This document shows positions 340 through 35,139 of a stretch of 64,000 nucleotides of DNA, in pieces. A program made the translations under genes and the position numbers. This stretch comes from Amoebidium appalachense (taxonomy: Eukaryota > Protista > Ichthyosporea). Under the pieces are notes generated by a model. That model worked only from the letters and a program-made list of their open reading frames with translations, had not been told where the DNA came from and made no database searches. The first letter of the stretch is position 1; every line of letters begins with the position of its first letter. The stretch spans positions 13,549,615 through 13,613,614 of the forward strand of contig CAVNZM010000002.1 in NCBI GenBank assembly GCA_963693365.1, given 5' to 3'.

Positions 340-659
340 CTAAAAGAGTGCAGAAGCACACACATACAATGCAATCATCAGGCCCATCACACCCTTTCCA
401 ACCCTGCTTGCCGCACTCTGTGTAGGTGGTAAACCCACACGCTTTTGGTTATTTGGGAATAATTGCCGGGATTCATCCTGATCTCCCGTATCCGCTTCAT
501 CCCCGTCCTGGCCTATGCCTAGGGCACCGGCCTCTCCCAGTATTTGCTGCTCACTCGGGGCATCTACAAGTACAAACCCTTCGTTGATGCTATGGTCTTT
601 GAAACCTTGGAGGTCGAACGGTGTTGCGGCCAACTCAATGTCGCCACCATTTGTCTTGC
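340..659 (-). CDS. Exon 41 (last): acidic linker and GPI-anchor-type hydrophobic tail
   Basis: TCTAAC branch point; ends [30 protein letters not shown] with no cytoplasmic tail. Confidence 0.8.
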
Positions 660-33600: not shown

Positions 33601-35139
33601 CAGCAAAACACTTGAGTTGAGCAGCGTGTCAGAATTAAAAACACCAGCTACCCTTTAAGGGTACTCAACGCTCCCCCCTTCCCCCCCCTTTCCCCCCCTC
33701 CTCCCCCCCCTCCCCCCCCCCACCCCCCCCAAAAAAGAAGAAGAAGAAGAAAAAGAAGAAAGCGGGGAAAGAAGGGAAGAAAGAAAACAACTGACACCGT
33801 CAACGCACCAACAGCCCCACCATTTAACTGTTCATTCGTGGTTCATATTCTCCTACTCCCTTCGGTATTTGCACCTTGCACCTTAAATTTCATTGTTGTC
33901 TAAATGCACAGACAGACGAAAGAGCTGTGTGTGTGTGTGGGTGCGTGTGCGGATGTGTCTATGTGTGTGTGTGTGTGCGTGGTCGGGGCGTGCATGCGCG
34001 CATATGTGTGTGTGTGTGTGTATGTATGTGTATGTGTATGTGTGTGTGTGTGCGTGCATGCATGCGTGTGTGGGTCGGTGCGTGTGTTTGTGTGTGCGCG
34101 CACACTTGTGTGTGCTGTATACATGTGTGCGTGTGTGGTGTGTGCGTGTGTTTGTGTCTGTGTGCTGTGCGCATCTGTGCTGTGTGTGTGTGTGTGTGTG
34201 TGTGTGTGTGTGTGTGTGTGTGTGTGTGTGTGTGTGTGTGTGCGTGCGTGCGTGCGTGCGTGCATACGTGTGTGTGTGTGTGCATGCGTGCGTGCGTGCG
34301 TTTGTGCGTGTGTGTGTTTGTGTGTGTGTGTGTGTGCGCGCACGCGCGTGTGTGCGTGTGTGTGTGTATGTATGTGGGTGCGTGTGTGGGTGCCTGTGCG
34401 TGTGCTTGTGCGTGTGCGTGCGTGTGCGTGTGCGCGTGTGAGTGTGAGTATGTGCGTGTGCGCGCAGCGCGTGTGCGTGTGTGCACAAGCGTGTCTTTCT
34501 GTGTGGTGTGTCACGATGTATGTATGCATGTCACAGTGGGGTGTAGGGGACAAAGGGCCAGGAATAAGGAAAAGGAGGAGAGAGATTGTGAAGCTGCGCG
34601 TCTTAGCATGAAGAAGTATACCACGGCTCTAGATCACCCGAACGATTATGGCGTCCCCTACTCCAAAACCTGTACCAAGGACGAAAAAAAGCAACGTGGT
34701 CACAGTAACCTCCCTGCGCCACCACGCCCACCCCCCCCTTCCCCCTCCTCCCCCCCCCCCCCCCCCCCTCCCCCCCTCCCCCTCTCCCCCCCCCCCCCCC
34801 CCCCCCCCCCCCCCCCCCACTCCATCCCCCCCCCCCCCCCCCCCTCGTGACTCAGATCTTCAACTCACCTGGAGCCAAAGCAGGTGTTAGGCCCGAAGAT
34901 GCACCGCCCGTTTCTGCTCCAAAACCCAACTCAGCCCCATTTGTGTTTGCACCACCCCCGCCAGGCTGAGCCCCAATCTGATTCCTGGATTCAGTTTCGG
35001 GCAAGTTGAAACCAAATCCGCCATCTGAAGTGTCATCTTCTCCTCCAAAACCGAAACCGAATTGGGCTCGCACCATATAAGGTGATATAAGGGCTAGAGC
35101 AACAACCGCACAGATAATGCGGTGTCGACATGGTATCAT
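340..35139 (-). CDS. Giant multi-exon cell-surface protein (about 41 exons, about 4,100-4,200 aa): signal peptide, about 21 SdrD-B/CnaB-like repeats, Pro-rich stalk, about 17 EGF/cbEGF, SEA-like, TNFR-Cys-like, GPI-type tail
   Basis: Exons joined by hand through GT..AG sites with matching phases, from ATG 35139 to TAG 340. Needs single-base corrections at about 26530 and 19603, and has uncertain junctions at about 25700 and 13174. Exons are listed below. Confidence 0.85.
935..1375 (-). CDS. Exon 40: TNFR-Cys-like module plus unknown Cys-containing domain
   Basis: [28 protein letters not shown] donor. Confidence 0.8.
1834..2031 (-). CDS. Exon 39: Cys-rich segment
   Basis: [26 protein letters not shown]; acceptor follows (CA)n. 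Confidence 0.8.
2525..2630 (-). CDS. Exon 38: SEA-like segment, part 2
   Basis: [24 protein letters not shown]; phase 0-1. Confidence 0.65.
3068..3258 (-). CDS. Exon 37: SEA-like segment, part 1
   Basis: [36 protein letters not shown] branch point and pyrimidine tract before CAG. Confidence 0.75.
3886..4131 (-). CDS. Exon 36: EGF plus cbEGF
   Basis: [28 protein letters not shown]. Confidence 0.9.
4461..4706 (-). CDS. Exon 35: EGF plus cbEGF
   Basis: [29 protein letters not shown]. Confidence 0.9.
5268..5513 (-). CDS. Exon 34: EGF plus cbEGF
   Basis: [25 protein letters not shown]. Confidence 0.9.
5783..6031 (-). CDS. Exon 33: EGF plus cbEGF
   Basis: [29 protein letters not shown]. Confidence 0.9.
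6565..6807 (-). CDS. Exon 32: EGF plus cbEGF
   Basis: [29 protein letters not shown]. Confidence 0.9.
7055..7210 (+). repeat. Dispersed intronic element of about 155 bp, copy 1
   Basis: Reverse-complement match to 61619-61771, including the block GATGTATGCGTTAGAGGGTTGGAAATATGGAGGAGACAACAA. Confidence 0.85.
7682..7936 (-). CDS. Exon 31: EGF plus cbEGF
   Basis: [21 protein letters not shown]. Confidence 0.9.
8614..8856 (-). CDS. Exon 30: EGF plus cbEGF
   Basis: [29 protein letters not shown]. Confidence 0.9.
9293..9493 (-). CDS. Exon 29: partial EGF plus cbEGF
   Basis: [39 protein letters not shown]; tandem CAGTAG acceptor. Confidence 0.85.
10195..11049 (-). CDS. Exon 28: Pro-rich extensin-like stalk
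   Basis: Open frame with PPPPPYV repeats; CACTAAC branch point before a TTCAG acceptor; phase 1-1. Confidence 0.75.
11578..11766 (-). CDS. Exon 27: EGF domains
   Basis: [44 protein letters not shown]. Confidence 0.9.
12225..12521 (-). CDS. Exon 26: end of last SdrD-B-like repeat fused to the start of a cbEGF
   Basis: [20 protein letters not shown] directly followed by [12 protein letters not shown]. Confidence 0.9.
13059..13173 (-). CDS. Exon 25: start of the last SdrD-B-like repeat (acceptor reads CG)
   Basis: [21 protein letters not shown], a close match to the SdrD-B N-terminal motif. Confidence 0.8.
13676..13793 (-). CDS. Exon 24: continuation of that repeat
   Basis: [18 protein letters not shown]; phase 2-0. 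Confidence 0.8.
14242..14404 (-). CDS. Exon 23: first part of an SdrD-B-like repeat
   Basis: [33 protein letters not shown]; phase 1-2. Confidence 0.85.
14828..15493 (-). CDS. Exon 22: two SdrD-B-like repeats
   Basis: [16 protein letters not shown] and [22 protein letters not shown]. Confidence 0.9.
15820..15992 (-). CDS. Exon 21: second half of that repeat
   Basis: YEYGFL..TDVDFGY; phase 2-1. Confidence 0.8.
16426..16582 (-). CDS. Exon 20: first half of an SdrD-B-like repeat
   Basis: [22 protein letters not shown]; phase 1-2. Confidence 0.85.
16928..17171 (-). CDS. Exon 19: second half of that repeat
   Basis: [18 protein letters not shown]; phase 0-1. Confidence 0.85.
17539..17633 (-). 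CDS. Exon 18: first half of an SdrD-B-like repeat
   Basis: [13 protein letters not shown]; phase 1-0. Confidence 0.75.
18092..18275 (-). CDS. Exon 17: second half of that repeat
   Basis: [26 protein letters not shown]. Confidence 0.85.
19059..19207 (-). CDS. Exon 16: first half of an SdrD-B-like repeat
   Basis: [26 protein letters not shown]. Confidence 0.85.
19533..19839 (-). CDS. Exon 15: SdrD-B-like repeat (apparent +1 frameshift)
   Basis: [26 protein letters not shown]; 307 nt, restored to frame by removing one base from the G6 run 19600-19605. Confidence 0.75.
20197..20553 (-). CDS. Exon 14: SdrD-B-like repeat with polybasic insertion
   Basis: [40 protein letters not shown]. Confidence 0.8.
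21141..21461 (-). CDS. Exon 13: SdrD-B-like repeat
   Basis: [31 protein letters not shown]. Confidence 0.85.
22019..22220 (-). CDS. Exon 12: second half of that repeat
   Basis: [25 protein letters not shown]; phase 0-1. Confidence 0.8.
22826..22938 (-). CDS. Exon 11: first half of an SdrD-B-like repeat
   Basis: [23 protein letters not shown]; phase 1-0. Confidence 0.75.
23468..23830 (-). CDS. Exon 10: SdrD-B-like repeat
   Basis: [44 protein letters not shown]. Confidence 0.85.
24192..24524 (-). CDS. Exon 9: SdrD-B-like repeat
   Basis: [35 protein letters not shown] donor. Confidence 0.85.
24976..25299 (-). CDS. Exon 8: SdrD-B-like repeat
   Basis: [34 protein letters not shown]. Confidence 0.85.
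25690..26825 (-). CDS. Exon 7: two SdrD-B-like repeats plus Thr-rich/acidic linkers (apparent frameshift; 3' end uncertain)
   Basis: [21 protein letters not shown] and [22 protein letters not shown]; frame changes at the C5 run 26528-26532. Confidence 0.7.
27306..27590 (-). CDS. Exon 6: SdrD-B-like repeat
   Basis: [31 protein letters not shown]; acceptor follows (CA)n. Confidence 0.85.
28542..28856 (-). CDS. Exon 5: SdrD-B-like repeat
   Basis: [34 protein letters not shown] donor. Confidence 0.85.
29503..29820 (-). CDS. Exon 4: SdrD-B-like repeat
   Basis: [43 protein letters not shown] donor. Confidence 0.85.
30676..31647 (-). CDS. Exon 3: Pro/Thr mucin-like linker plus SdrD-B-like repeat
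   Basis: Poly-Thr/Pro, then [28 protein letters not shown]; phase 1-1. Confidence 0.85.
31950..32160. repeat. (GCGT)n tetranucleotide tract flanked by (GT)n
   Basis: About 200 bp of GCGT units inside intron 2. Confidence 0.95.
33218..33538 (-). CDS. Exon 2: SdrD-B/CnaB-like repeat
   Basis: [32 protein letters not shown] acceptor, GTGGGT donor, phase 1-1. Confidence 0.8.
34869..35139 (-). CDS. Exon 1: signal peptide and acidic Gly/Phe-rich N-terminus
   Basis: [36 protein letters not shown]; donor G|GTGAG. Confidence 0.8.

Follow-up and report, generated by a model that had tools for sequence, protein, structure and literature searches.

The window analyzed here is a 64,000-nucleotide stretch of the genome of the ichthyosporean Amoebidium appalachense (contig CAVNZM010000002.1, positions 13,549,615 to 13,613,614 of the forward strand), which carries on its minus strand, at 340..35139, a gene for a giant protein that combines repeats of the SdrD-B type with EGF domains. 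The gene model, which is matched from exon 3 to exon 28 by a spliced RNA contig, consists of 41 exons, with a coding sequence of 12,411 nucleotides (nt) that encodes 4,136 amino acids (aa) and a predicted protein mass of about 430 kDa before glycosylation. We interpret the product as a very long cell-coat protein, likely attached by a glycosylphosphatidylinositol (GPI) anchor, in which SdrD-B domains that likely came from bacteria were likely multiplied as exons on a eukaryotic EGF stalk, and put the probability of this reading at roughly 0.6.

To derive the model, minus-strand frames were read between the simple-repeat introns and the exon ends were chosen at GT-AG boundaries; the introns range from 269 to 1,567 nt, with a mean of 560. 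The resulting frame starts with the ATG at 35139, ends with the stop codon at 342-340 and contains no internal stop, so that the spliced model confirms the start, the stop and the coding length of about 12.4 kb that an earlier note on this DNA had given. The model requires two one-base corrections of the assembly, both in short homopolymers: base 26528 is absent from the RNA contig, and leaving it out restores the reading frame in exon 7; the other one, located in exon 15 near 19602, was inferred from the length count of the contig. The acceptor of exon 25 is CG in the assembly, not AG. Positions 26528, about 19602 and 13174-13175 are likely one-base assembly errors adjoining or within simple runs, and automatic annotation would probably break the gene at these points. 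The frame of exon 7 is also open beyond the donor used in the RNA contig (25793-25720, minus strand), with the acidic G-G-F-G and Thr-rich pattern continuing, a possible alternative donor.

The contig in question, 11,828 nt from the public run X1, matches the model from exon 3 to exon 28, without mismatch on at least eight exon pieces in 9760-17410 and at least eight in 20790-31900. The eight joints listed for it read CT..AC, which corresponds to GT-AG for a gene on the minus strand, and because the contig skips these introns, X1 is RNA. Exon lengths summed from exon 28 upward reproduce the record positions of the contig up to exon 3. The contig includes exon 26, in which repeat 21 passes into the first EGF domain, and shows this exon spliced to exon 27 and exon 27 to exon 28; one end lies within the Thr-rich part of exon 3, leaving exons 1-2 unbridged, and 3,685 nt extend beyond exon 28, compared with 3,185 predicted coding nt, the alignment covering exons 3-28. 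This evidence comes from a single sample, from which run X2 also derives; runs X3 and X5 yielded low-complexity pieces or no match to the gene. The gene is expressed as a spliced transcript over exons 3-28, and across this range, including the repeat-EGF junction, the earlier proposal of one spliced gene is borne out.

Architecture of the protein and identity of its repeats

The array contains 21 repeats, as delineated by a profile from 13 window exons (a 22nd row, at -3.2, was dropped), and a profile from 91 database domains, themselves selected by means of a profile of the window repeats, recovers the same 21 domains in the model with 17.7-88.4 bits. When the six raw frames are searched, the 91-domain profile gives 22 matches, all of them on the minus strand between 12259 and 33494. 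The estimate of about 21 repeats is therefore confirmed by two profiles. All features of the gene described below are on the same strand. Repeats 1-7 (26019..33538; Pfam SdrD_B or CarboxypepD_reg matches and alignment) form a short class of 96-101 aa, to which exons 3 and 7 contribute Pro/Thr-rich linkers, and repeats 8-21 (12262..25299; Pfam, alignment and the fold of repeat 19) form a long class of 103-119 aa with an extra hairpin and a C-terminal F-G/A-Y/F strand. Pairwise identity among the repeats averages 23%, with a maximum of 41%.

Several repeats are split over exons and hence were scored by Pfam in pieces; 12 of the 27 exon pieces exceed the gathering cut-off of SdrD_B (PF17210, 29.7 bits), and 20 match this family at E up to 0.05. 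CarboxypepD_reg is above cut-off in seven of the 27 pieces, and the NOMO and EMC7 models in none (best scores 22.3 of 27 bits and 25.4 of 26.6 bits, respectively). Against the PDB, the best single-domain score of the repeat profile was 60.5 bits for an SdrD B domain vs 22.8 bits for NOMO2; a phmmer search of the PDB with exon 22 alone gave no match, although the repeat profile did. The AlphaFold2 model of repeat 19 (predicted local distance difference test score, pLDDT, 92.6) has SdrD and UafA as its top three fold matches (Z 13.4-15.2), with Z 15.2 and a root-mean-square deviation of 2.3 over 105 aligned residues for SdrD, compared with Z 10.5 and 2.2 over 88 residues for NOMO; the template modeling (TM) scores from Foldseek are 0.76-0.81 and 0.56, respectively. 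In the ten Atlas clusters shown for exon 22, SdrD_B is present in 93-100% of the members, at a recognition value under the threshold of the tool, and the five of these clusters that carry taxa are all bacterial. Exon 22 had no relative among viral contigs, and the viral fold library gave one unnamed match (TM 0.82) and otherwise weak phage matches. The NCBIfam MSCRAMM scores of single exons are far under the cut-off. The Pfam, PDB profile and fold results together support the assignment to the SdrD-B type that the earlier note had made by eye, and the window repeats, as judged from sequence and modeled structure, appear more like bacterial SdrD-B repeats than like the eukaryotic NOMO family.

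In SdrD B domains, calcium is held in an EF-hand-like A-B loop, according to the available part of a structural study (PMC13174682), and for some SdrD_B domains an intramolecular isopeptide bond has been predicted (PMC12617251, available part). A loose form of the calcium-loop motif, DxD/N/SxD/NG, is found in 9 of the 21 window repeats vs 74 of the 91 database domains, and six of the nine loop-keeping repeats fall among repeats 10-21; these repeats may bind calcium, as predicted from the motif. The stricter consensus IG(D/G)RVWxDxNxNG put forward previously holds in its full form only in a few repeats, the loose loop being the part that stands. The three DG motifs reported along with it are present, in the form T/S-Y/F-D/E-x-D-G, in repeats 15, 18 and 19. 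In repeat 13, the position of the calcium loop is occupied by a polybasic insert of Lys and five Arg in the A-B loop (20483..20500, identified in the alignment), the only R-x-K/R-R match in the whole protein and a candidate convertase site.

Upstream of the array, the protein has a likely signal peptide (residues 1-25; 35065..35139), with a hydrophobic stretch at residues 7-27 and the cleavage site placed by eye, followed by a Gly-rich acidic segment without a Pfam or NCBIfam match (34869..35064). Acidic stretches beside a G-G-F-G-type motif recur in the N-terminal linkers (35040-35010, 31480-31455 and about 25900-25780, minus strand); the G-G-F-G motif is found at residues 34 and 254, with similar ones near the end of exon 7, and is possibly a sorting or binding motif.

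Downstream, two EGF domains follow (11578..12261; Pfam, Cys count and RNA contig over exons 26-27), the first of which shares exon 26 with the end of repeat 21 and has only a partial calcium consensus. Next come a 285-aa Pro/Thr-rich exon with three Y-x-PPPP motifs (10195..11049), covered by the RNA contig, and exons 29-36 (3886..9493; EGF_CA matches and Cys count) with 15 EGF domains, namely one calcium-binding EGF (cbEGF) domain followed by seven EGF + cbEGF pairs, each pair in an exon of its own and bounded by phase-1 introns. EGF_CA (PF07645) exceeds its 27-bit cut-off in all eight of these exons; all 17 EGF domains of the protein contain six Cys, and eight show the full calcium consensus. 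The junction of repeats and EGF within exon 26 is thus confirmed by the model and the RNA contig; as to the earlier claim that the repeats run directly into cbEGF domains, two EGF domains do follow at once, but the main cbEGF array begins only after the Pro-rich exon.

Behind the EGF domains, a Cys-free segment of about 100 aa (2525..3258) is SEA-like by eye only, and a Cys-rich segment split by intron 39 (1300..1960) is TNFR-like, with TNFR_c6 (PF00020) scoring 21.5 bits for the half-domain in exon 40, under its cut-off of 29.4, and Atlas leads at 0.75-0.76 only. SEA domains have a ferredoxin-like fold and a G-S-V-V-V cleavage motif; this motif was not seen in the translated model, and the two exons, scanned apart, gave no Pfam match to SEA at E up to 10. 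The SEA-like and TNFR-like segments described earlier hence resemble these domains in appearance but have no profile match above the cut-off. A domain of about 120 aa that contains Cys (935..1300) showed no known relatives in the homolog search, and the single-sequence fold of exon 40 is uninformative (pLDDT 30.8). Two candidate relatives of exon 40 were rejected: P0014, its sole protein match, is a bacterial FG-GAP protein in which five weak repeats add up to a spurious score, and the metagenome loci L001 and L002 share a chance octapeptide in DNA of 70% GC. For the remainder of this exon, neither the set of 1.84 billion representatives, which was searched at any length, nor the Atlas gave a credible relative, so that these sets contain no close ortholog with this C-terminus. 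At its C-terminus, the protein has an acidic spacer, a stretch of small residues and a hydrophobic tail that forms the very end of the chain (340..659; by eye and hydropathy), an arrangement that resembles a GPI signal and makes a GPI anchor probable. The protein contains 50 N-glycosylation sequons.

Probable origin and multiplication of the repeats

All 14 long repeats (8-21) score best with a database repeat, above any sibling repeat. The database protein P0018 shares 46.7% identity with repeat 21 over 107 aa, and the closest genome loci of P0018 belong to Acidobacteriota; these loci cannot name a donor because they were fetched with P0018 as the query. The late DG motif recurs in 24 of the 91 database domains, mostly those of P0001 and P0018, and, at the level of sequence, marks the bacterial subfamily to which these two belong. 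Every organism name given among the 133 listed homologs is bacterial, although most rows are without a name. A quick IQ-TREE tree built from 112 domains places 11 long repeats with a single database row (Shimodaira-Hasegawa-like approximate likelihood ratio test, SH-aLRT, 82) and five short repeats with one another (86). The best reading is that the repeats were likely gained by horizontal transfer from bacteria.

An intron is found at 17 of the 20 repeat junctions, in each case in phase 1, compared with only one phase-1 intron among the seven within repeats (Fisher p 5e-5). In animal matrix proteins, modules are usually duplicated by way of symmetric phase 1-1 exons. Given the phase-1 introns at its junctions, the array appears to have grown inside a spliced genome, and the repeat unit was likely multiplied as an exon; the low identity among the repeats suggests that this amplification is old. 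Thus, of the scenario in which a bacterial module was taken up horizontally, amplified and built into a eukaryotic gene, the amplification is supported by the junction intron phases, and the transfer, with the tree open, is only likely.

Proposed function and alternative explanations

The signal peptide is predicted to direct the protein to the cell surface, with the tail exchanged for a GPI anchor. The 17 EGF domains and the 21 beta-sandwich repeats would form two rods with a glycosylated, mucin-like Pro-rich hinge between them, the extended lengths of which, at 4.5 nm per repeat and 2.5 nm per EGF domain, would be about 95 nm for the repeats and about 40 nm for the EGF part. The membrane-near repeats would have retained the calcium loop and stay stiff, and the outer repeats, mostly without it, would together with the Thr/Pro-rich linkers provide a surface that sticks to the substrate, to neighbours or to bacteria. 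More speculatively, if a convertase cleaved the polybasic loop of repeat 13, only one beta-strand would still hold the outer 1,740 residues, so that they could be shed. We infer an adhesin role for this protein. That it represents a family of giant GPI-anchored adhesins not described before, in which a bacterial stalk domain became a phase 1-1 exon module, was multiplied 21-fold on a cbEGF stalk, and lets the outer half be shed by the polybasic cut, is a tentative proposal that we regard with some doubt.

Several observations weigh against parts of this interpretation. The Pfam and NCBIfam scans found no ligand-binding tip domain at the N-terminus, so that any adhesion would depend on the outer repeats or on the glycosylated linkers. 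The calcium loop is missing from 12 of the 21 repeats, and the core fold of a B domain was kept without calcium in one structural study (PMC13174682, available part). The main rival to an adhesin is a structural coat fibre, a spacer or scaffold of the wall, theca, stalk or glycocalyx with repeats that bind nothing specific; it would fit the missing tip, the low identity among the repeats, the extensin-like Y-x-PPPP motifs of the Pro/Thr-rich segments and the numerous sequons. The membrane-anchor-like tail and the cbEGF array, both typical of adhesion proteins, speak against such a fibre, which we consider rather unlikely, and the two roles are mutually compatible. It is far less plausible, indeed very improbable, that two or more adjacent genes, or bacterial contamination, were merged in our reading. 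In favour of a merger, the RNA alignment is limited to exons 3-28 of the 41, and the model needs two one-base corrections; however, one contig with GT-AG joints, the record positions of which fit the model to the base, spans exons 3-28, repeat 21 and the first EGF domain lie in one exon, the repeats are interrupted by spliceosomal introns, and the tail of the contig past exon 28 is long enough for the rest of the predicted coding sequence. For exons 3-28, the merged-gene explanation is largely refuted.

The bacterial origin of the repeats also has to be set against contrary evidence. For the short repeats, a sibling is the best match in six of seven cases, with one tie. In the tree, 62 of the 109 inner branches are open and the 21 repeats do not form one group; it took in no rows of eukaryotic homologs, that is, no other eukaryotic SdrD_B. 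Furthermore, chitinase proteins of diatoms have been reported to carry SdrD_B as an auxiliary domain (PMC12028343, available part), and given this case the domain may have a longer history or a broader distribution among eukaryotes. For these three reasons, the open tree, its lack of eukaryotic SdrD_B rows and the diatom proteins, the transfer is graded as no more than likely. With respect to multiplication, 33 of the 40 introns of the whole gene are in phase 1, so that the phase at the repeat junctions is common to the EGF part. The alternative that the repeats are an old eukaryotic inheritance, either of the transthyretin-like fold of NOMO, EMC7 and carboxypeptidase D or of a eukaryote-wide SdrD_B lineage, draws on the diatom case and the open tree, and on NOMO2 being the second-best whole-protein match of the repeat profile in the PDB (96.8 vs 97.0 bits). 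However, the NOMO score sums ten weak stretches, the best of them at 22.8 bits, and the printed NOMO alignment lacks the calcium loop, whereas the fold scores favour SdrD and the names among the listed homologs are bacterial only; we consider this explanation improbable and retain the bacterial transfer as the better one.

Elsewhere in the window, a spliced gene at 57955-63400 (plus strand) encodes a likely secreted protein with Cys-spaced segments that look ZP-like by eye; its exon 60199-60822 has no Pfam match, and no homolog of it was found. Similar intronic stretches of about 240 nt are present in opposite orientation at 7067-7313 (minus) and 61529-61756 (plus), and a 21-base probe matches these two places only, suggesting a small dispersed repeat element. 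Three open frames of ordinary composition on the plus strand (43409-43858, 42086-42373 and 47441-48200) are without a Pfam match, and no useful match came from the remaining open frames of the window.

Comparison with known systems

The staphylococcal Sdr MSCRAMMs (compared here through SdrD, SdrC and UafA; PF17210; PDB 10ps, 4jdz and 3irp) share with the window protein a stalk of tandem B-type beta-sandwich repeats, which provide the best fold match, and an EF-hand-like A-B loop, present in the nine repeats mentioned above. In contrast to these proteins, the window protein lacks the N2N3 A region, the SD repeat and the LPXTG signal (model, Pfam and NCBIfam), has 21 repeats rather than five, and is spliced, with an EGF stalk and a GPI-like tail; it resembles an Sdr stalk in how it works without being an MSCRAMM. 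Environmental bacterial SdrD_B proteins (P0018, P0001 and the Acidobacteriota loci L003-L022 and L024, of Thermoanaerobaculia) have in common with it the long repeat class, the late DG motif and the D-V-D-F-G-Y end, with up to 47% identity to the window repeats, but have no introns. P0001, P0018 and loci L003-L022 form a conserved Acidobacteriota family, in which an unnamed N-terminal domain of about 400 aa precedes long-class SdrD_B repeats. None of the 141 stored proteins and none of the 82 loci combines SdrD_B with an EGF domain.

Among eukaryotic proteins, NOMO is a resident of the endoplasmic reticulum with a transmembrane helix. As a component of the BOS complex (PDB 9c7u and 9c7v), it likewise contains a tandem array of the same transthyretin-like fold. 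It differs from the window repeats by the absence of the calcium loop, much lower per-domain scores and the absence of EGF domains. Surface proteins with cbEGF arrays, such as fibrillin-like proteins and those of the apicomplexan EtMIC4 type, resemble the window protein in their long calcium-binding EGF stalk near the membrane; to our knowledge, they contain no SdrD_B repeats. The cohesin-bearing cadherins of choanoflagellates are a further case of a bacterial module in a eukaryotic adhesion protein. Teneurins are likewise a proposed hybrid, in a unicellular relative of animals, of eukaryotic EGF domains and a prokaryote-derived module, but they are type II membrane proteins with a YD-repeat shell encoded on one huge exon, whereas the unit described here is small, present 21 times and bounded by introns (PMC3278476, available part). 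The diatom Trailins, in the available part of their description (10.1101/2023.03.06.531300), are also large secreted adhesive proteins with a domain of bacterial surface proteins and linkers rich in Pro, Thr and Ser; the domain is CAA rather than SdrD_B, and the terms 'SdrD' and 'Cna' are absent from the main text.

No relative with the SdrD_B + EGF architecture was found in repeat-based searches of proteins of 203-2,000 aa and among word-sharing candidates, nor was a paper describing one found in the open-access literature, where searches on SdrD_B in eukaryotes, on SdrD in choanoflagellates and on SdrD with EGF-like domains and horizontal transfer in unicellular organisms gave no such case; the papers that combine SdrD B-like domains with eukaryotes do not, by their titles, concern a eukaryotic protein. 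The available main text of a choanoflagellate transcriptome preprint (10.1101/211789) does not contain 'Cna', and its supplements may bear on the question; the supplements of PMC7971027 and PMC6792448 do not contain the terms SdrD or Cna. Thus, the kind of protein, a bacterial surface module in a eukaryotic adhesion protein, is already known from teneurins and Trailins, and the SdrD_B + EGF build was found described nowhere, although an annotated protein of the same build may exist, unnamed, in a public genome.

Proteins that join bacterial surface modules to eukaryotic EGF stalks have been proposed as steps towards eukaryotic adhesion, with teneurin as the best-known case. The exon structure of the present gene preserves a record of how this likely came about: a domain of bacterial type is bounded by phase-1 introns, which makes the SdrD-B unit compatible with shuffling among EGF exons. 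The array further provides a set of natural SdrD-B domains, some of which have the calcium loop and others lack it, and a cut in repeat 13, if true, would free the outer half of the protein by the loss of a single beta-strand. The intron style and the domain content of the gene might suit a unicellular holozoan. In any lineage, the protein is an expressed, testable candidate for surface attachment; if the host is a unicellular relative of animals, it would represent a parallel experiment in the building of an extracellular matrix.

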